Origin: Candidatus Poribacteria bacterium
GTDB taxonomy: Bacteria; Poribacteria; WGA-4E; PCPOR2b
Length of the DNA stretch: 64,000 nt
Direction: 5' to 3'
NCBI GenBank assembly: GCA_965220385.1
Contig: OZ244825.1
Location: 212,769 to 276,768 of the forward strand
Under the pieces are notes generated by a model that was given only the letters and a program-made list of their open reading frames with translations, was not told where the DNA came from and made no database searches. Positions 31,665 to 56,175 of this stretch are shown in pieces; within the stretch, counting starts at the first letter, position 1, and every line of letters begins with the position of its first letter. The position numbers and the translations under genes were made by a program.

Positions 31665-33563
31665 ATGCGACTTGAACGTATCATCCTCAAATCTTTCGGC
31701 TGTTTTGACCGCAGAGACTTTGACCTGAGCGACGGGGTGAATCTTATCTTCGGTCCTAATTTCAGTGGCAAAAGTACGCTTGTCAATGCCATTTTCTTCG
31801 CGCTGACAGGCAAGCCGATCGTCCCGAAGGTGGGTTTGCCGGCAATGGCACAATCCGGCGCGACCAGCGGCACCGCCGGACTCAGTTTTCGCAATGGAGA
31901 ACATAGCTATCAACTGTTCCGCTCGACGCAGGGGGAAGTTCAACTCCGCCAGAAGGAAGATAATGAAAAATGGCGTATCCTCTTTACCGGCAAACGTTCG
32001 GCGGACGAAGATCTACGGCAAAAGTTCCATTTCAGCTACCACCAGCTTGCTGCAGCGACATTCCTACGCGAAGGCGAGATTTTTGAGTTCCTTGCACGGC
32101 AGCCCGCTGATCGGCGCGATGTACTACACGCGCTGCTCGGCATCGATCGGTTGATGGAGGTGCGTCAACGCTTCCTTGAAGGACGGCGTATTGCCAGGCG
32201 AGAGGAGAAGCGGATACAGGATCATCAACGCAGCATGCGGGTGACGACTGTCAAGAATCATCGTGAAGAGATTGAACGGACCGGGGCAGAGCTGAAGAAA
32301 TTGGAAGGTCAGTACGAACTGCTTACCGGTAAAGGAAACCAAAGCGGGGACGCAGCACTTGTCACCGAATTGACCCAGGCACAAGAGCGGTTCCAAAAGG
32401 AAATTGACGGACTGATCCAGGAACGGGCCACAGTTCTGAGCGGCTTCACCGATGTTGATCACCTGCGGACCTCCATCAAGGAAATTGAGGCAGCAACCGC
32501 GAGCGCGGGCGGACTGGAAAAGGGGCGGGATGAACTCATCCAACGGATCGGCAGTCTGAACAGTCAAGTCCACACCCTTACGACGGAATGCGAAACCCTG
32601 CGCCAATTGATCGACAGTGATCACGGTCACTGCCCAACCTGCCATCAGCCCGTCCAACAAAAGATCATCGAGGGCATACTTGCTGAGAAAGAGGCGGCAA
32701 AAGCTTCAAGCCAACGAGAACTTGAATCGCAGCAGAAAACCCTCGACAAACAGACTGAGAATATCAATGCCCTGCGCGGACTCAAGCAGCGACATCAATT
32801 GATGCAAGGCAAGGTCGAGCAGCTTGAACGGACCGAAAAGCAGCTTGCCAAACTCCAACGTGATTTCGATGGGATTGCCAGTCGGTTGGGCGCGCTACAG
32901 CCGGCAACACCGCCGCAAATCAGTCCGATATCCGATGCATCTGCCGATCCCGCACAGATCGCGGAGCAACGCCGCCAGCTCAAATACCGAATCGACAGCC
33001 TGCGCCGTCAACTTGACAGACTCAATAGGGAAGAAGCGGTTATTGCCCATAAACTCGAAGAACTACAGCGGGTTCAATCTCAAGCAAATCAGGTTCTACG
33101 CACCCGCCTCAGCTTTGAACTTGCCTGCGATGGCGTTGACAAGACAATTGCTTCCCTCCAACAAACTATCCTCCAACCCGCCGAAAAGGAAATCCAGCGT
33201 TGGTTGGAACGGATGGACCTCACCCGATTCTCTCAGATTGATCTCAAAAGCCAGCACCTACTCCCCTCCCTCAACGTCGAAGGCGTCGAGCGTAACCTAA
33301 TGCTCCTCAGCGGCAGCGAAAAGATGATGCTCTACCTCTGCTTCAAAGCTGCCCTCTCAGAAGCGCTAGGGACTCTCGGTTTCTTTGTCTTCGATGACCC
33401 AACCCTCCACCTTGATCCGGATCGACGCGGCGCGATGATTGACTTCATTCAGCAGCTCGCCGAAGAACATCAGGTTATCGTAACCAGCAATGACCCGGAA
33501 GTTCGCGCTGGATTGCCGGACGCACATCTGATTGAGACAACGCCACACACTTCTCATGTATAA
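31665..33563 (+). CDS. SbcC/Rad50-like SMC ATPase with zinc hook
   Basis: GPNFSGKST, coiled coils, central CPTC, LSGSEK, FVFDDPT.HLD. Confidence 0.85.
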   Translation: MRLERIILKSFGCFDRRDFDLSDGVNLIFGPNFSGKSTLVNAIFFALTGKPIVPKVGLPAMAQSGATSGTAGLSFRNGEHSYQLFRSTQGEVQLRQKEDNEKWRILFTGKRSADEDLRQKFHFSYHQLAAATFLREGEIFEFLARQPADRRDVLHALLGIDRLMEVRQRFLEGRRIARREEKRIQDHQRSMRVTTVKNHREEIERTGAELKKLEGQYELLTGKGNQSGDAALVTELTQAQERFQKEIDGLIQERATVLSGFTDVDHLRTSIKEIEAATASAGGLEKGRDELIQRIGSLNSQVHTLTTECETLRQLIDSDHGHCPTCHQPVQQKIIEGILAEKEAAKASSQRELESQQKTLDKQTENINALRGLKQRHQLMQGKVEQLERTEKQLAKLQRDFDGIASRLGALQPATPPQISPISDASADPAQIAEQRRQLKYRIDSLRRQLDRLNREEAVIAHKLEELQRVQSQANQVLRTRLSFELACDGVDKTIASLQQTILQPAEKEIQRWLERMDLTRFSQIDLKSQHLLPSLNVEGVERNLMLLSGSEKMMLYLCFKAALSEALGTLGFFVFDDPTLHLDPDRRGAMIDFIQQLAEEHQVIVTSNDPEVRAGLPDAHLIETTPHTSHV

Positions 33564-49124: not shown

Positions 49125-50397
49125 AGCAAGTTTAAGTATACATTTTGAGTTTTTACAGAAGGGTGTGCTGGAGCTGCCCTGATTCATGAATCCCCATCAA
49201 AGATTGGAATCGTGAAAACGGTAATCTATCCAGCCACCCGATGACAGTTTGACAGAGTTGAGAGAAACTGTTGAAAAAATAACTCCTGTTAATTTGATCT
49301 CGCATCAGATGCCACAATCGCTCAATGAGATTCAGATGTGGACTATAAGTTGGCATCGGGACTAAACGCAATCGGTCTTTGTGGTGAATCAGGAAATCGT
49401 CAAGTTTTGCCGTTGTATGACTCGATGCATTATCACGGACGACAAACAGCAACTCATCGGGATACATATCCATTAGGTTTTGCCAATGTGTTTTGATCTG
49501 AAGATGGGTTTTATTGGCATAGATTTCATACAAGCCGGCCCCCGAAGGATACTCTAAGGAGCCGATGAGGTATTTCCGCCGGTTTTTGCCGGGGGTGTTG
49601 ACCTTATATTCAGTGCCTTGCTGTCGATAAATACGTCCACTGTTGGGACACCAAGACACGTTAGCTTCATCAAAGAAAAACAGGCGAGCCGTCTTTTTTT
49701 CGGTCTCAAGTGCAGACAGACCTAAACGCCGAAGTTGGGTATCCGGGAGAATCAACCGAGTCGCCTCACTCGTCAACTCTCCCGTTTTGGCAAACACCTC
49801 AACTCCGTCAGTTGAGTCCGTTTCGCTTGATATTCTGGATCCGGACTGCCAACACGGAGTTTGCTTCGACCGGTGCGGTAGCCTACCCGTCGTAAAGCCA
49901 GATGGATCGCTGGCGGTGTGACCGAAATCTCGTGATACGCTTGGAGATAAACTCTTATCAGCTCAAGCGTCCATTGTCGAGAGTCCGTCTGAAGTTTTTC
50001 GTATTGATTCGGCGTTTGCTCAAGAAGTCGATTCCAGTCCGATTTGCTAAAGTGTGTGATTTTACCACGACGCCCCGGAGGACGCTTAGGCATCAACGCA
50101 TCTAAACCAGAGCTATTGTATGTATGAATATAAGTCCTAACACTCTCATCAGAGAGATTAAACATCTTGGCGAGTTTCGACACGGGCATACGTTCAATGC
50201 CACTAAGTTTGATGATTAGTAAACGCCTATACCATTTCGGGTGTGTCGCTTCACAAAGCGCAACATCAAGACGTTCAACAGCCAAGGAATCGTTAAGTTC
50301 TGCGTAAATCATCAATTAAGACACTCCTTGTGAGATAGATTTACACACAGTATAACGCAAAACTCTATAAATTGGTGATTTATTATTTAATATTGCT
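49125..50397 (-). mobile_element. IS630-family insertion sequence, two ORFs (49773-50315 HTH; 49153-49797 DDE)
   Basis: FFDE, VVRDNASSH, SPHLNLIERLW; TA-flanked ends TAAGCAAGTTT.. and ..AATATTGCTTA. Confidence 0.9.
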
Positions 50398-50399
50398 TA

Positions 50400-50631
50400 A
50401 GCAATATTGAATAATAAACTTTCGATTCTCAGTAGGTGTCGCACCCGTAGGGGCGGGGTTTCCCCGCCCGCCATCGATGTAAAATGTGCATATTTAATAT
50501 TGAAACTTGCTTATGAGAGCAATATTGAATAATAAACTTTCGATTCTCAGTAGGTGTCGCACCCGTAGGGGCGGGGTTTCCCCGCCCGCCATCGATGTAA
50601 AATGTGCATATTTAATATTGAAACTTGCTTA
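50400..50631. repeat. Two identical 114-bp copies (50400-50513, 50518-50631) of an IS630-cognate MITE with REP cargo
   Basis: Direct comparison of both copies; ends match the adjacent IS630 ends. Confidence 0.9.
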
Positions 50632-52677
50632 AAACATCTTAGACCATCTCATATTGAATTGGGGCGTCCGCCCCGACTCAATAGCTTGCGCCCAGTTTAG
50701 CTTCCAATTGTCTCCTATCAGTAAACCGGCGCCCAGATTAACCTTCGGATCAGAGGTGCTGATTTCGCCTAACTTGTCCCATACCCCGCCTGCATCCGTG
50801 AAAAATGTAACGAATACCCCGTCAATGATGTGATGACGATACTCCAAATTGAGTAGGATACCCTGGTTACCAGCAAATTCATAAAGATCATACCCACGAA
50901 GCGATCCAGGACCCCCAAGAATAAATTGACGTTGAACCGGCACCTCCTTTGCTGAAAACCCAACTTTCAAACGGAGGTCAAGCATGTGCCAATCGCCGAT
51001 AGGTTGGTAACGTCTGGAGTGTATCTCAAATCGTGTAAAATCAAAGTCAGAACCCACCGCCGAATTGCTATGCTCCACTGCAAAGGTATTGTACCAACCC
51101 TCGTTCTCAAAACGACTATCAAAATCATATCTCAAAGCGATACTCCGCATTTGTCCGGGCGTTATTGGTGTATTTTTTTCCTTGTCCGATCTCCATCGAA
51201 AGAGGGACCAATCTGTCATTTTGTTCAGGCTTTCGTGATTTTCATTGATTACAGTCAGTTTCAAGGAATGGAGGAGTACCTCCGGTTGCCATCGTAGCGA
51301 GATTTCAGAACCAGCCTTCAGATAATAATCTCGGAAGTCCCCGCCATATAACAGGGCAGTCAGAAGTTGCTCGGTATCGTCTAGTAAAATATCTGGATCT
51401 CTTACCGATGTCAGGCGATGGAATTGAAACCTAACGGTCAGATTCCGGTCAACTCCTCCTAATAATCTTGCCTCTCCACCCGCTTCATAGTTCAACTGTT
51501 TGTTTGAAAAACCGTAGCTCAAAGCCCCAAATAGCTTCGGTTGAAGCGGTATCTCAATCTCCGTAGGTTTCGACAGTTCAAGCCGGGGTCCAAGTCGTAG
51601 CCCCTGTACGCGATTAAACCCACCACTCATTGTGAGGTCCATTACGATGTCCGGTAGGATCTCGTCCTTCGCTGTATTCTCCTCCACTGTAATTGTTACA
51701 ATCCGTTTATCTTCTTCTTGATGGATATGCCAGTCCGCTCGCCTGATATGCGGAAGAATGGCCTTCATTGTTTTGATAGCATTGCTAATGTCATCTGGTC
51801 CCTTTTCAAGCGCCTCTCTGATTTCCGAAGCCTTCACTCTTTGGTTGCCTCGAATCCGAACTTCATTGATTGGTTGCTTTTCCCTATCCATAAAGTGGGT
51901 TGAAGGAAATGAGAACGCTGTGTTCCCGGAGGGTTGATCCGTGATCGAAGGGGTTACACCATTAGGTTGTTTTTCCATCGATTTTGACCGTTCTTTGATA
52001 CCAAACCCGTCTTGATGGTCTTGGAACGGGTTGTCTTCCAAGGCGTTAAGTTGTGGGATGTCCACACCAACGCCTTCAAGGTTTCTTAATAATTCACCAA
52101 TCCGTTGTGGGTGCAGATGTCCGATGATATTCACTAGATGCGCTTCGGTTTCCCCTGTGACCATTACAAAAAGTCCGTCGATTGTCTCTGTATTGAGCAG
52201 TACCCATATTTGAATCTTCTCACTGTCCTCCCTGATTTTGGCAAAGGCTTCCCAACCACGCTTTTTCAACACCCGTTCATAGTAACGGATCATTGGGTCG
52301 AAACTCGTGGCATTACCAGAGTAGCTACGGACATATACTCCCGCTAGCATTGCAATCAATTCGGAAATCTCAGGTTCTTGTTCCGTCGTTTTAGCGACGA
52401 ATGCGATTAACTCACTATCTAGGTTCACTTCGACCTTTGGCTTTAGGGGAATTGGACCATTGAAGGTGACAACACCTCCTGCTGTTTCTTCTCTTTTTCC
52501 GCCTCGTACCCAACCAAGAATGGATTCAATCTGTGGCTTTAAGGGAATCGGAAAATCGAAGGCAATAACACCTCTTGCAGCCTCTTGCGTTTTTGCAGTC
52601 TCTGCCCAGCCAAGAACAGAAAGGGAGAGAATGAGCAGTAGGAAGACGATGGAACGACAGTTTGCATAGCGTTTCAC
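50629..52677 (-). CDS. DUF4252 + single POTRA + Omp85 (BamA/TamA-like) beta-barrel fusion
   Basis: Signal peptide; DUF4252-like block; INEVRIRGNQRV; LGGPGSLRGY, FTDAG, NLGAGL, C-terminal Phe. Confidence 0.8.
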   Translation of the reverse strand: MKRYANCRSIVFLLLILSLSVLGWAETAKTQEAARGVIAFDFPIPLKPQIESILGWVRGGKREETAGGVVTFNGPIPLKPKVEVNLDSELIAFVAKTTEQEPEISELIAMLAGVYVRSYSGNATSFDPMIRYYERVLKKRGWEAFAKIREDSEKIQIWVLLNTETIDGLFVMVTGETEAHLVNIIGHLHPQRIGELLRNLEGVGVDIPQLNALEDNPFQDHQDGFGIKERSKSMEKQPNGVTPSITDQPSGNTAFSFPSTHFMDREKQPINEVRIRGNQRVKASEIREALEKGPDDISNAIKTMKAILPHIRRADWHIHQEEDKRIVTITVEENTAKDEILPDIVMDLTMSGGFNRVQGLRLGPRLELSKPTEIEIPLQPKLFGALSYGFSNKQLNYEAGGEARLLGGVDRNLTVRFQFHRLTSVRDPDILLDDTEQLLTALLYGGDFRDYYLKAGSEISLRWQPEVLLHSLKLTVINENHESLNKMTDWSLFRWRSDKEKNTPITPGQMRSIALRYDFDSRFENEGWYNTFAVEHSNSAVGSDFDFTRFEIHSRRYQPIGDWHMLDLRLKVGFSAKEVPVQRQFILGGPGSLRGYDLYEFAGNQGILLNLEYRHHIIDGVFVTFFTDAGGVWDKLGEISTSDPKVNLGAGLLIGDNWKLNWAQAIESGRTPQFNMRWSKMF

Positions 52678-52741
52678 GGTTTGTTTTTTCCTTCTTATTG
52701 AGGTGTGTAGCTTACCTTGTCATTATCATGTTTTGTGAGAC

Positions 52742-53347
52742 TTATTCTGAGACGGGCAAACGGACACCATACTGTCCGAGATTTGCGTTCAGTTCGGCAA
52801 AGAATTCGGGACGGATATCGCACACGATCCGGACCACATGCATCTCATTGTTTTCAATTGTGACTATGAAGATTCCACGGAACCTGTTTGCATTGTATTT
52901 TGCATAAATGCAGGAACTGTGCTGATCTTCATAAACACGGGTGATTAAGTTCCATTTTTTCTGACGCATCAGTTCCGCGTAGAGGTCAAAAATTTCAGAT
53001 CTATCTGTTTCGGACGATTGATCTAAGATGAAGTGGCTTACTTGGACACTCTTTACTCCACGAATCGTGAGTGTCGCTGCCCGATTTTCTTCTTCGCCCA
53101 AAGATGTTCCAAGGTGTTTGAGTACCCACCAGCCGGGTCCTCCAATACCAAATCCTATCTCTTTGTGAACGTGGCTTAATCGATCCGCGCGACCAGTGTC
53201 CCCACCGCTTCCCAACAGGCAGCCGCAACCGATATTTACCGCGAGGAGGAGAGGGTAGATAAAAAACGAAAAACGTAAAATGTGATTAGCTGATCTATTG
53301 TTCATGATTTTTTTGAAGATTATCAAAACTAATTTGACAAGGTGCAA
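52742..53347 (-). CDS. Divergent DUF4252-like exported/lipoprotein
   Basis: KW.LI.RV.E, GIFIVT, VV.I..DI.PE; start may be the ATG at 53305. Confidence 0.65.
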   Translation of the reverse strand: MHLVKLVLIIFKKIMNNRSANHILRFSFFIYPLLLAVNIGCGCLLGSGGDTGRADRLSHVHKEIGFGIGGPGWWVLKHLGTSLGEEENRAATLTIRGVKSVQVSHFILDQSSETDRSEIFDLYAELMRQKKWNLITRVYEDQHSSCIYAKYNANRFRGIFIVTIENNEMHVVRIVCDIRPEFFAELNANLGQYGVRLPVSE

Positions 53348-53356
53348 AATTTCCCA

Positions 53357-53962
53357 CTACTCTTTCTGGGACTTACTCTTTTCTTCAGGCTTTGATTCGT
53401 TCTCAACCTTGATATCCATACCTTCAACATGAGGTAGACCAAGGTTGTCCAGATTTACAAGTAATTCGCCGATTCGTTCCGGATTGATTTCACCGACGAT
53501 ATTTACGAGGGTCACTTCTGCCTCTCCTGCGACCATGACGAAAAGCCCAAATATGATATCTTCACCGAGTAATATACGTACCTGAACAGTCTCTCCCTCT
53601 TCTTTGACTTTGGCGATGACCTCCCACTTTTCGTGTTCCAGCCTATCCTCATAATGGTGGACCAATTTATTATCAATCGTGGTGTGGTTTTCATAGACGC
53701 GGACATATACGCCTTTCAGCATTTCAAGTAATTCAGTGACTTCTGAGTTCGGTTTTGCGGCTTTGGCAACGAGTGAGATTAACTTACCACTTAAATTGAC
53801 CTCAATTTTTGCCTCCCGAGCGTTCGGAAAATCAAATGCAATAAGCCCTTTTGTTTCTTCCTTCTCTTTTTGGGCTTCAGCAAATGCTTCACCCCTAGGC
53901 ACTATGTCGATAAAAATACACAGACCGACTGCAAGTGTTACAATTTGTAAAATGTGTCTCAT
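53357..53962 (-). CDS. DUF4252 family exported protein
   Basis: EVNLSGKLISL, LKGVYVRVY, WE.IAKVKE, LVNIVGEI.PE.I. Confidence 0.8.
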   Translation of the reverse strand: MRHILQIVTLAVGLCIFIDIVPRGEAFAEAQKEKEETKGLIAFDFPNAREAKIEVNLSGKLISLVAKAAKPNSEVTELLEMLKGVYVRVYENHTTIDNKLVHHYEDRLEHEKWEVIAKVKEEGETVQVRILLGEDIIFGLFVMVAGEAEVTLVNIVGEINPERIGELLVNLDNLGLPHVEGMDIKVENESKPEEKSKSQKE

Positions 53963-54108
53963 AGTTCAGTCCCCTCCAAACAGAACACAGAGGCGTATTA
54001 ATTTCATTTGGATAGCTTGTCTATCAAGCTAAAATTATCGAGAGACAAGGAGTTGAGAATCTAAGGAGGCAAAGTTGCCAATGCTCTTGAACTCCTTGGA
54101 TTGTCGTC

Positions 54109-54690
54109 TTAAATGTCTTCATTTGGTTGGCTTGGTTCAGTGTCAATTTTGAGATCTTTAAGTTGGGGCAGATCTAGGTTCAGATTCATATCTTCCAAGT
54201 TACTGATGACATCACCAACCTTTTCAAAATCGATATGCCCGAAAATATTTACGAGGATCGTTTCCTTAGCTCCGGTGACCATGATAAACACACCGCTAAC
54301 TATCTCTTCATCAAAGAGCAAAGCAACCCGGACAATCCCATCTCCCTCTTTAGCTTTGACGATGGTTTCCCATTTGCCTACTTTCAGTTTGTTCTCATAG
54401 TGACGAAGCATCTGATCAAGATTCTCGCCATTCTCGTATCCCCGAATGTATACCCCTTTGATCATTGCCACTAATTTGCCAATTTCCGACTCGTGCTCCA
54501 CAGATTTGGTAAGGAGTGTGAACAGTTTGCTGCTCACGTTCACTTCAATTATCGCTTCGGATACATCGGAAAAATCGAAATTGATGCGCCCTTTAATATT
54601 TTCGTTTTGTATCTCAGCAATCCCATTTCCGACGGTAAAAAGGAGGGATAGCAGCACAGCAAGTTGTGTGAAGTTTATACATCGTTTCAT
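54109..54690 (-). CDS. DUF4252 family exported protein
   Basis: EVNVSSKLF.L, IKGVYIRGY, WETIVKAKE, LVNIFG.IDFEK. Confidence 0.8.
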   Translation of the reverse strand: MKRCINFTQLAVLLSLLFTVGNGIAEIQNENIKGRINFDFSDVSEAIIEVNVSSKLFTLLTKSVEHESEIGKLVAMIKGVYIRGYENGENLDQMLRHYENKLKVGKWETIVKAKEGDGIVRVALLFDEEIVSGVFIMVTGAKETILVNIFGHIDFEKVGDVISNLEDMNLNLDLPQLKDLKIDTEPSQPNEDI

Positions 54691-54740
54691 GAGTCGTTTT
54701 CTCCTAAATACGTTGAAGGTTATGGAAATGAGGAACAGCA

Positions 54741-55391
54741 TCACTCAGGTGACTGGTTATTGCCAAAATCCTCATCGTTACCAGTGGAACTATCTGTCAA
54801 TTTGTTGAGTATGATGAAGCTACGTTGAATTGTCTCTGAAGAGTTAATTTCATCCATCGTAAGCATTAACGCTCTGCGTGGTGCCTCTCTCACCTGATCG
54901 GCGGAAAGGCGTTTGTCGATAGCCAGTCCTGTTTTATGCATCGCGTAGCGCACCGTGCTCAAAGCATAACTGAGTTCGTGGGCAGCCTGTTCAATTTGTA
55001 AAGATTGCTGGTGCTGCTGGTATGCACCGAATGTCACGAGGATAATGAGGCTAGCAGTGACGGCTCCAACTGTAACCGGACGAATGGACAACCCACGTAG
55101 AGCTTGCTTCAATGAATCAAACCACCCCTGAGTGGTGGGCTGTGGATGAGATCGAACGTAGGCAGCAACGTGGTCAAAAACATCGGAAGGGGGTTCGGGT
55201 TTTGGCACTTCTTGCAACGCCTCACTGAGTTCAAGCGCGAAGTCCAACTCATTTTGGCAATCTTGGCATGTAGCCAGGTGTGTCTCAATTGCTGTTTGAG
55301 CGTCGGCGTTCAGTTCACCGGCAAGGTATTCTTCCAAAACCGAATGCACCTGTTCACAACGTATTGTTTGTGTTGTCGAATGTTGTTGCAT
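54741..55391 (-). CDS. Zinc-binding (ZAS) transmembrane anti-sigma factor
   Basis: HLATCQDC (HxxxCxxC), single TM. Confidence 0.85.
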   Translation of the reverse strand: MQQHSTTQTIRCEQVHSVLEEYLAGELNADAQTAIETHLATCQDCQNELDFALELSEALQEVPKPEPPSDVFDHVAAYVRSHPQPTTQGWFDSLKQALRGLSIRPVTVGAVTASLIILVTFGAYQQHQQSLQIEQAAHELSYALSTVRYAMHKTGLAIDKRLSADQVREAPRRALMLTMDEINSSETIQRSFIILNKLTDSSTGNDEDFGNNQSPE

Positions 55392-55395
55392 CGAG

Positions 55396-55938
55396 TTATC
55401 TCCCCATAAGGTTTCCCAATATATCCCGCAATTTCTTTTTTGCCCGAAACATATTTGATTTCACGGTGCCGACAGGCTGATTTAGCGTTTCCGCAATTTC
55501 CTCAAAACTTAATTCGTTTATTTCCCGCATAATCACGACCGTGCGAAAATGGAGAGGGAGTTGGGCGATTGCCTGTTGAACCAATTGTTGACGTTCCTGC
55601 CTCATATAGAGTTCTTCCGGCGATAGATCTGACGAGTCAGACGCCGTACCCTGATGCTGATGGTGAACCAATGTTTCAATTTCTTCAGTATCTCCCGTCG
55701 TTAACGGCACTTGAAATCTACGCCGGCGCAATAGGTCAATACATAAATTATTGGCGCATTTGAGCAGCCACGAATGGATTGTCTTGAGGCGTAATTCAGC
55801 GTTGGAATGCCACGCTTTGATGAAAGTCTCCTGAGTCACGTCCTTTGCGTCATCTGGGTTATTGAGCAGGTACAGTGCGTGTTGATAGACCTGTGCTTGG
55901 TACTGCTTGACGAGATCAAGAAATACCTCCTCTGGCAT
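55396..55938 (-). CDS. ECF RNA polymerase sigma factor
   Basis: DAKDVTQETF, SWLL..ANN.CID.LRR, EIAE.L..PVGTVKS..FRA. Confidence 0.95.
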   Translation of the reverse strand: MPEEVFLDLVKQYQAQVYQHALYLLNNPDDAKDVTQETFIKAWHSNAELRLKTIHSWLLKCANNLCIDLLRRRRFQVPLTTGDTEEIETLVHHQHQGTASDSSDLSPEELYMRQERQQLVQQAIAQLPLHFRTVVIMREINELSFEEIAETLNQPVGTVKSNMFRAKKKLRDILGNLMGR

Positions 55939-55976
55939 ATCGTGACTCCATGAGCTTTCGTTGAAGCTACTCTTAT

Positions 55977-56002
55977 TACGAATGCCACAATGAAAAGTTG
56001 TA
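55977..56002 (-). promoter_or_regulatory. Candidate ECF autoregulatory promoter
   Basis: TACAAC-N16-CGTA, resembling the SigW-type TGAAAC-N16-CGTA. Confidence 0.55.
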
Positions 56003-56175
56003 TCGGAATCGTGCCTTTTGGACGTATTGTGGCTTTGTACGTTTTCTATTTCGGGTTGCCTTTACTACGAATGACGCAGCGAAAAGTTGCATTAAAGTTT
56101 GAACAATTAGCAAATTGCGAGATGTGGTGGTCTGAGCGAAAAGACGTATCAACATTCCAAAGACAGAAAACCTTC

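Follow-up and report, generated by a model that had tools for sequence, protein, structure and literature searches.

Omp85 proteins that have been studied are mostly protein insertases or translocases. In one group, the type Vd proteins such as PlpD and FplA, an N-terminal globular domain, a linker, exactly one POTRA and a 16-strand Omp85 barrel are joined in one polypeptide (PMC11116518). A second described system is the GFO_1088/PG0214 cassette of Bacteroidota, which encodes a sigma factor, an anti-sigma factor and at least one exported DUF4252 protein. In Porphyromonas gingivalis, PG_0214-0218 and PG_0985-0987 are clusters of a sigma factor, a putative anti-sigma factor and DUF4252 proteins (PMC10101095) that co-vary both in mutants of regulators and upon exposure to H2O2 and NO (PMC10101095, PMC11018363); PG0214 itself, named SigCH, controls hmuYR and cdhR (PMC13403362). 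Here we describe a locus in a 64,000-nt window (the whole stretch of DNA analysed) of contig OZ244825.1, from the Candidatus Poribacteria assembly GCA_965220385.1; unless a locus is named, coordinates are positions in this window. The window almost certainly holds an autoregulated six-gene extracytoplasmic function (ECF) sigma operon, which follows the gene order of the Bacteroidota cassette and, unlike that cassette, which has no Omp85 gene and no fusion, ends in an outer-membrane Omp85 protein with one POTRA, 16 barrel strands and a tethered DUF4252 domain.

The six open reading frames (ORFs) lie at 50629-55938 and all run in one direction on the minus strand, as read from the ORF list and translations. 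An ECF sigma factor is followed by a ZAS-type anti-sigma factor, three free DUF4252 proteins (D1, D2 and D3) and the DUF4252-linker-POTRA-Omp85 fusion (Table 1), with 4 nt between the sigma stop codon and the anti-sigma start. The flanks, a divergent epimerase and phosphoenolpyruvate carboxykinase upstream and a convergent molybdopterin dehydrogenase downstream, are kept in orthologous loci L001-L005. These components are largely those that an initial annotation had read from the sequence: the six-gene content, a membrane-spanning ZAS anti-sigma factor, four DUF4252 domains, three of them in free exported proteins, a POTRA and an Omp85 barrel with SLRGY and FxDxG motifs, and a SigW-like ECF promoter upstream. 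ORF and Pfam analyses confirmed the gene content, and the remaining elements were borne out by the evidence described below. The annotation had drawn the locus at 50629-56002, which encloses all six genes and stops about 90 nt short of a distal promoter copy.

Alignment of the region upstream of the sigma gene in the window and six orthologous loci revealed one sharply conserved block, TGCAACTTTT-N10-TTCGTAGTAA. The block is of the typical ECF AAC-N16-CGT type, here GCAAC-N16-CGTA with GCAAC as the -35 and CGTA as the -10 element. The exact motif TGCAACTTTT-N10-TTCGTA occurs once in each orthologous locus (L001-L005, L007), always upstream of sigma and nowhere else there, and no internal copies were found within the operon in the window or in the orthologous loci. 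Because the promoter lies upstream only, no internal copies exist, and the flanks are divergent or convergent and conserved, the six genes are considered one autoregulated unit. The window differs from the orthologous loci, 6/6 of which have a single copy, in that a 31-nt element is duplicated, the two copies being 81% identical and 89 nt apart. Three motif matches were found in the window, two exact and one with 2 mismatches, a number reached by no shuffled sequence. The mismatched site (32004-32027) falls within an opposite-strand ORF of 632 aa and was rejected as a chance match. A generic sigma-70 promoter and terminator scan gave no excess over shuffled sequence and was not used.

The sigma factor scores 121 bits against the SigW model of NCBIfam and 91.9 bits against TIGR02937 (cut-off 42.9); its regions, size, adjacent anti-sigma gene and AAC...CGT promoter place it among the ECF (group 4 sigma-70) factors. 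The anti-sigma factor exceeds the zf-HC2 cut-off (PF13490, 34.4 bits versus 22.2), as a ZAS protein does, and also matches TIGR03988 RsrA at 1e-6. The zinc ligands predicted from its translation, C12/H38-x3-C42-x2-C45, belong to a cytoplasmic zf-HC2 domain, and hydropathy indicates a single transmembrane (TM) segment at residues 106-124 followed by a periplasmic tail of about 92 aa.

All four DUF4252 domains (PF14060) score above the gathering cut-off of 23.9 bits: D1 at 48.9, D2 at 60.7, D3 at 27.0 and the fusion at 47.9 bits. Identity to the fused domain is 42% for D2, its closest paralogue, 37% for D1 and 21% for D3. Sec-type signal peptides are present on D1, D2 and the fusion. D3 is concluded to be a lipoprotein because its lipobox Cys is retained in 9/9 orthologues, and a Gly-rich tether follows the lipobox. 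Two starts were revised by comparison with orthologues: the ORF of D1 is listed from 54744 and orthologues begin at M19 (likely start 54690), and that of D3 is listed from 53347, with M15 (53305) as its likely start. Weak Pfam matches (Omp_AT on D2 at 0.013, T5_p143 on D1, and DUF5686 under its cut-off) were rejected as noise or generic barrel similarity.

The fusion scores 52.9 bits against the Omp85 family PF01103 (cut-off 24). An AlphaFold2 (AF2) model built from a 139-sequence alignment had a mean predicted local distance difference test (pLDDT) score of 86.3, mostly above 90 in the barrel, with 16 long strands within residues 345-677; it superseded a model from a 9-sequence alignment (pLDDT 39.6), in which only the POTRA was usable. 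Loop 6 points inward in the model and carries LRGY at residues 593-596. Foldseek searches against the PDB returned TamA (4c00, E 2e-14), BamA, Toc75 and Sam50, all with probability 1.0, and the best matches also included the isolated TamA barrel 4n74 (TMt 0.65) and 4c4v. S592-L-R-G-Y596 and F626-x-D628-x-G630 are invariant among orthologues; across 24 paralogues, G595 and Y596 are invariant, F626/D628/G630 are at least 90% conserved, and R594 varies. At the sequence level the POTRA is faint in the window protein (Pfam POTRA_1 at E 0.037 only), with PF07244 reaching 6e-6 in paralogues. The 16-strand barrel, the loop 6 and FxDxG motifs and the POTRA together make the fusion a member of the Omp85 superfamily. 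Ahead of the POTRA, residues 225-251 form a disordered linker, and the fused DUF4252 domain, in which strands and helices follow the order b-a-a-b-a-b-b-b-b-a, extends into the periplasm from the POTRA-barrel part on a flexible tether of about 50 residues. The region of its first strand is partially duplicated (residues ~36-86, 52440-52575 on the minus strand; copies GVIAFDFPIPLKPQI and GVVTFNGPIPLKPKV), with a segment of low pLDDT between the copies. This duplication is common to orthologues of at least 81% identity and is absent in the 50% relatives P0014 and P0015.

Table 1. Operon features in the 64,000-nt window
Feature	Positions	Strand	Evidence
Distal promoter copy	56062..56092	-	exact motif CAACTTTT-N10-TTCGTA at 56066-56089
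Proximal promoter copy, ~40 nt ahead of the start codon of sigma	55973..56003	-	exact motif at 55977-56000
ECF sigma factor of 180 aa with only regions 2 and 4	55396..55938	-	Pfam Sigma70_r2 1.8e-15, r4_2 7e-16
ZAS-type anti-sigma factor, 216 aa	54741..55391	-	Pfam zf-HC2 2.3e-8; NF052375 51 bits, residues 19-180; hydropathy
D1, free exported DUF4252 protein, ~193 aa	54109..54690	-	PF14060 9e-13; signal peptide ...GNGIA/E (slash, cleavage site)
D2, free exported DUF4252 protein, 201 aa	53357..53962	-	PF14060 1.9e-16; signal peptide ...AFA/E
D3, divergent DUF4252 lipoprotein	52742..53305	-	PF14060 5e-6, 27.0 bits; lipobox ...VNIGC/GC
DUF4252-POTRA-Omp85 fusion, 682 aa: signal peptide, DUF4252, linker, POTRA, barrel; aromatic C-terminus ...KMF	50629..52677	-	Pfam, AF2, Foldseek
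Fusion DUF4252 domain, residues 79-203	52069..52443	-	PF14060 1.8e-12 (residues 83-196); pLDDT ~90
Single POTRA, residues 255-333	51679..51915	-	AF2 b-a-a-b-b, pLDDT 90-96
Omp85 beta-barrel, residues 345-682, 16 strands	50632..51645	-	AF2 strand list; Foldseek; TamA by sequence 6.5e-8

Curated subfamily models all score far under their cut-offs on the fusion (BamA TIGR03303, 37.6 versus 297; TamA NF047950, 28.6 versus 625; TamL NF052279, 26.3 versus 400; ShlB PF03865, 18.7 versus 22.7 bits), so that the fusion counts as an Omp85 protein belonging to none of the named subfamilies. TamA and BamA give the best structural matches of the barrel and also the best PDB sequence matches, which span loop 6 to beta-16, and the RGY and FxDxG motifs are common to all three. 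The fusion differs from both in its extra DUF4252 domain and in having one POTRA, compared with three in TamA and five in BamA; it is not a BamA. No TamB-like gene lies in the operon or its flanks, which together with the scores above separates it from TamA and TamL, and BAM lipoprotein genes are likewise missing nearby. A single POTRA instead of two, the lack of any large TpsA-like ORF within 48-59 kb and the sub-threshold PF03865 score distinguish it from TpsB. The layout is that of type Vd, with DUF4252 in place of the patatin lipase domain of PlpD. A Pfam search of the fusion found no patatin, so it is not a type Vd protein; outside the barrel the two are unrelated in sequence, and PlpD, unlike the fusion, is not encoded within an ECF sigma/anti-sigma operon. 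The fusion belongs to the same N-terminus-swapping part of the superfamily as the WD40-Omp85, noNterm and BamL/TamL subfamilies surveyed by Heinz and Lithgow (2014; PMC4104836), and DUF4252 is absent from the N-terminal domains named in the main text of that survey. Our literature search found no description of a DUF4252-Omp85 architecture, in agreement with the claim of novelty in the initial annotation, and no publication characterising DUF4252, which six papers mention, all of them in passing.

The regulatory half of the operon has closer relatives. The sigma factors, anti-sigma factors and DUF4252 proteins of the window and of three further loci (L039, L072 and L073) match the same families, NF058625 (the GFO_1088 family, sigma_PG0214), NF052375 and NF058626, with all scores under the NCBIfam equivalog cut-offs (130, 100 and 150) of these Bacteroidota families. 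NF058625 gives 110.1 bits for the window sigma and 119.8-125 bits for the other three, and is the best match in three of the four, the window being the exception. By these scores the window sigma is a near-miss relative of the PG0214 (SigCH) family rather than a curated member. The four anti-sigma factors have NF052375 as their best match, over a region reaching past the zinc finger, and the free DUF4252 proteins match GFO_1090. The association of DUF4252 with ECF/anti-sigma pairs, which the initial annotation had described as frequent, is documented by PG_0214-0218 and PG_0985-0987 (PMC10101095) and by the NCBIfam families GFO_1088 and GFO_1090. The SigCH targets hmuYR and cdhR have no counterpart in the Poribacteria operon.

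Two other envelope systems resemble the operon by functional analogy only. FecA-FecR-FecI likewise combines an outer-membrane barrel bearing a periplasmic N-terminal domain with a single-pass anti-sigma factor and an ECF sigma factor. The barrel here is of Omp85 type, as opposed to the 22-strand TonB-dependent transducer of Fec systems, and Pfam searches of the six proteins found no TonB-dependent receptor, STN or FecR match, which places the operon outside the Fec type. In the RseA-RseB (sigma-E) system, soluble periplasmic proteins are likewise encoded right after the anti-sigma factor; RseB has no homology to the operon proteins.

The fusion is not confined to this assembly, a possibility that the initial annotation had left open. 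Profile and single-sequence queries returned the same 15 close orthologues (15 protein clusters, 48-98% identity), and the full-length ones all carry PF14060 and PF01103; a scan with one genome per species yielded 163 relatives. The protein is 81-86% identical to its counterparts in several complete metagenome-assembled genomes. Candidatus Poribacteria, a group of sponge symbionts, account for 70 of the 71 retrieved loci, several genomes giving more than one, and the DUF4252-Omp85 fusion is an expanded paralogous family in this group. Fusion and cassette together are a recurrent, clearly conserved variant of both the Omp85 superfamily and the PG0214-type ECF cassette.

Searches of the loci with hidden Markov models defined five arrangements. 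Type A resembles the window, with sigma, anti-sigma, one or more free DUF4252 genes and the fusion; L001, L002, L004 and L005 have all six genes with three free DUF4252 proteins, and L003 and L007 have one gene in the D1/D2 slot. In L003 (5058-6203) this slot holds DUF4252 fused to toastrack (DUF4097), and P0102 is a DUF4252-DUF5694 fusion. In L001 (3583-5606) an insertion of ~2 kb parts the sigma from the anti-sigma gene. Type B consists of sigma, anti-sigma, 0-1 free DUF4252 genes and an 820-860-aa fusion with an extra CBM9-like module, and carries a near-identical promoter motif, TGCAACTTTT-N10-TTTGTAGTAA. In type C, two fusions come after a sigma-TM-Sortilin/BNR protein of 1045 aa; in type D, the two fusions come after tandem sigma fusions of 476 aa; and type E is a POTRA-barrel without DUF4252 among sigma fusions. 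A single TM segment directly follows the sigma domain in 23/23 of the long sigma proteins of ~1000 aa and in 29/35 of those of ~400 aa. Since many neighbouring sigma factors are thus built as sigma, one TM and a periplasmic domain, each would provide a sensor in the inner membrane to go with a DUF4252 barrel in the outer membrane.

Several features of these Poribacteria neighbourhoods stand on their own. Arrays of ECF sigma fusions pack as many as 7 sigma-domain ORFs into 18 kb (L018, whole locus; L010:2579-5678; L013:4017-7151; L010:81-2360). The array proteins are mostly membrane-tethered, with sigma, one TM and a periplasmic domain, and their C-termini are unmatched in proteins of 440-500 aa, a Sortilin/BNR propeller in those of ~1045 aa, or ankyrin repeats at a length of 760 aa, where the TM is missing. 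Proteins of ~385 aa with a PA14 domain adjoin paralogous DUF4252-POTRA-Omp85 genes (L010:10086-11237; L013:10990-13321). ORFs of ~400-415 aa, located 0.1-6 kb downstream of type-B cassettes, combine an ECF sigma domain, with both region 2 and region 4, and a GTPase domain of the tubulin/FtsZ type (Pfam Tubulin, 1e-38 to 1e-43; L033:14567-15775; L039:10581-11783; L059:5143-6381; L065:13460-14668; also L040, L050 and L058), an architecture that is unusual to our knowledge.

An exhaustive HMMER search extended the family to 5791 relatives at E <= 1e-3, of which 151 reach E <= 1e-30. Within this barrel subfamily the N-termini are interchangeable: DUF4252 with POTRA, DUF4252 alone, toastrack (DUF4097) with CBM9 and three POTRAs, CBM9 with POTRA, or a bactofilin-like domain. 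The POTRA-less DUF4252-barrel proteins are lipoproteins, like TamL, with an invariant LSGC lipobox, and in 4/4 informative contexts (L072, L073, L076, L077) the gene lies behind an ECF sigma factor, a zf-HC2 anti-sigma factor and a 185-aa free DUF4252 protein. Three cassettes of this lineage carry GTAAC-N17-CGTT at -40 to -47. A Por_Secre_tail gene of the type IX secretion system adjoins the L073 cassette, which hints that the lineage may belong to the FCB group. Barrel relatives lacking DUF4252 serve as a natural control for the sigma linkage: in 13 such loci, each extending 3.7 kb or more upstream, no sigma or anti-sigma gene was found. Among the variants without sigma genes nearby are toastrack+CBM9+three-POTRA barrels of 1100-1200 aa (P0038, P0051 and P0171, the last at L075:6001-9342) and P0074, with its bactofilin-like N-terminus (L074:3700-5250); a separate DUF4097 protein is encoded two genes downstream of P0074.

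We favour, tentatively and with a probability of about 40%, the reading that the operon is a trans-envelope signalling relay rather than a dedicated secretion or assembly machine. The anti-sigma factor would hold sigma at the inner membrane; the DUF4252 proteins may be periplasmic partners of this switch, by analogy with RseB and RseA, and the barrel-anchored copy may be the outer-membrane end of the relay, as the FecA N-terminal domain is with FecR. An event at the outer membrane, such as a shift in the state of the barrel, damage to the envelope or the presence of a ligand, would alter DUF4252 contacts, either homotypic among the four domains or with the 92-aa anti-sigma tail, or both. The anti-sigma factor would then be inactivated, and the released sigma would transcribe its own operon from the GCAAC-N16-CGTA promoter. 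Gene content, export signals, barrel fold, promoter and conserved gene linkage are observed; we infer the protein-protein contacts, the signal and the direction of information flow.

One argument for a relay comes from the company that DUF4252 keeps. The sigma link follows DUF4252 and not the barrel: linkage to the sigma/anti-sigma pair holds when DUF4252 accompanies a POTRA-barrel, a POTRA-less barrel or no barrel, and is lost when the barrel carries other N-terminal modules, which favours a signalling role for DUF4252. Conservation of the cassette across a deep divergence (types A, B and the POTRA-less lineage) supports the relay, and so do the promoter motif that types A and B share with this lineage and the matches of the window, L039, L072 and L073 proteins to one set of NCBIfam families. 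A same-strand sigma-domain ORF lies within 6 kb upstream of 62 of the 81 Poribacteria fusion genes with enough flank, which, with the membrane-tethered build of many of these sigma proteins, is a further point in favour. Among the other N-terminal modules of the barrel subfamily, and once fused to DUF4252 itself (L003), is toastrack, a module of envelope stress, which also speaks for the relay. A homotypic relay is likewise in keeping with the presence of four DUF4252 paralogues in a single operon and the tethering of one of them.

Other observations weigh against it. The DUF4252 fold had no PDB sequence match, whether queried as a single protein or as a 16-sequence profile (best E 0.18, at the level of chance), and Foldseek with both whole-protein models listed Omp85 barrels only and no fold relative of DUF4252. 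The background for the proportion of 62 in 81 is one 64-kb window with 1 sigma gene. Poribacteria paralogues without DUF4252 (L020, L041 and L047) still lie amid sigma-fusion genes. The sigma linkage is equally expected if the genes are regulon output only. The barrel retains catalytic-looking Omp85 features (loop 6 RGY, FxDxG and POTRA) that a mere anchor would not need, and the PA14-domain neighbours could be partners of the system or its cargo, the latter pointing away from signalling.

Such features would suit a dedicated, sigma-controlled Omp85 translocon or insertase, in which barrel and POTRA export or assemble the co-encoded DUF4252 proteins, by flipping the lipoprotein D3, secreting D1 and D2 in a two-partner-like manner, or displaying the fusion's own DUF4252 domain as a type-Vd-like passenger. 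The barrel is a genuine 16-strand Omp85 barrel with conserved motifs and one POTRA, and its neighbours in the operon, equipped with signal peptides or a lipobox, are candidate substrates. PA14-domain genes adjoin paralogous fusions, and the CBM9-like module of some paralogues could act at the surface. The order of passenger, one POTRA and barrel is that of type Vd (PlpD) proteins (PMC11116518). Several results nevertheless make this explanation unlikely. The Bacteroidota cassette has no Omp85, and DUF4252 proteins therefore need no dedicated barrel; POTRA-less relatives keep the same sigma/anti-sigma/DUF4252/fusion cassette; no TPS domain or TpsA-like gene accompanies the operon, with ShlB PF03865 under its cut-off; and DUF4252-less barrel relatives lack the sigma linkage. 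The patatin domain of PlpD has, in addition, reportedly been found of late to stay in the periplasm. In the initial annotation the operon was read as a dedicated system for outer-membrane assembly or secretion, in which DUF4252 proteins serve as adaptors or cargo; we found no specific evidence for it: the cassette exists both without a barrel and without a POTRA and DUF4252-less barrels have no sigma neighbours. Its architecture and its point about the lack of a published description stand, and its proposed function is not the best fit.

Alternatively, the genes may be regulon output only, with DUF4252 proteins as envelope-protective or ligand-binding effectors, one copy merely anchored by the barrel, and no feedback on sigma. 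ECF operons often carry their main targets downstream, and here the six genes depend on one promoter, the motif having no further copies inside the operon. PG_0214-0218 are co-induced as a unit under H2O2 and NO, and the wide range of unrelated N-terminal modules on the barrel subfamily is what one would expect of a platform for anchoring. We nonetheless regard this account, too, as improbable. DUF4252 pairs tightly with one sigma/anti-sigma family across distant lineages and directly follows the anti-sigma gene, a position more typical of RseB- or FecA-like accessories; invariant loop 6 and FxDxG motifs are unexpected in a simple anchor; and paralogues pair with membrane-tethered sigma fusions that have no separate anti-sigma factor. 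A thiol redox switch, in which the ZAS zinc site in the cytoplasm would receive the signal, as it does in RsrA, and the proteins of the periplasm and outer membrane would be unrelated passengers of the operon, is very improbable: the full C-H-C-C ligand set, the RsrA match and the H2O2 and NO response of the homologous P. gingivalis clusters speak for it, but RsrA is soluble whereas the window anti-sigma factor combines a TM segment with a conserved tail in the periplasm, redox sensing is not a property of most membrane ZAS proteins, and the conserved DUF4252 linkage would be left unexplained.

The signalling relay can be put in a broader form, which we consider possible but doubtful. The locus would then represent a new class of cell-surface signalling, with an Omp85 barrel instead of a TonB-dependent transducer as the outer-membrane sensor. 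The tethered DUF4252 domain would pass on the state of the barrel by touching its free and lipid-anchored paralogues in homotypic fashion, and the signal would end at either a ZAS anti-sigma factor or membrane-tethered sigma fusions. In Poribacteria this device would have multiplied into numerous channels working in parallel, a genome having several DUF4252-POTRA-Omp85 paralogues, each with a sigma of its own alongside; the matrix of the sponge host is perhaps what they sense.

Two minor observations concern the window itself. An IS630-like transposase in two ORFs (214 and 180 aa; 49153-50315, minus strand), identified by eye from its translation, lies directly downstream of the fusion, where orthologous L002 has ~140 nt only. 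PADLOC found no defence-system match in the window.

The fusion bears on the function of Omp85 proteins with unusual N-terminal domains, among which the role of the prototype PlpD is itself said to have been revised recently. DUF4252 is otherwise found free, always beside one family of ECF sigma/anti-sigma pairs; the fusion provides a testable hypothesis for its role, including in the genetically tractable SigCH (PG0214) operon of P. gingivalis, and for how an Omp85 barrel may be wired into transcriptional signalling. If the relay is correct, it would give DUF4252 and the P. gingivalis SigCH cassette their first function. If the secretion reading is correct instead, a small, self-contained and sigma-controlled module would constitute a new minimal type V-like system. 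Either outcome would extend the known roles of Omp85 barrels, and the relay offers a hypothesis for why sponge symbionts keep many barrel/sigma pairs.

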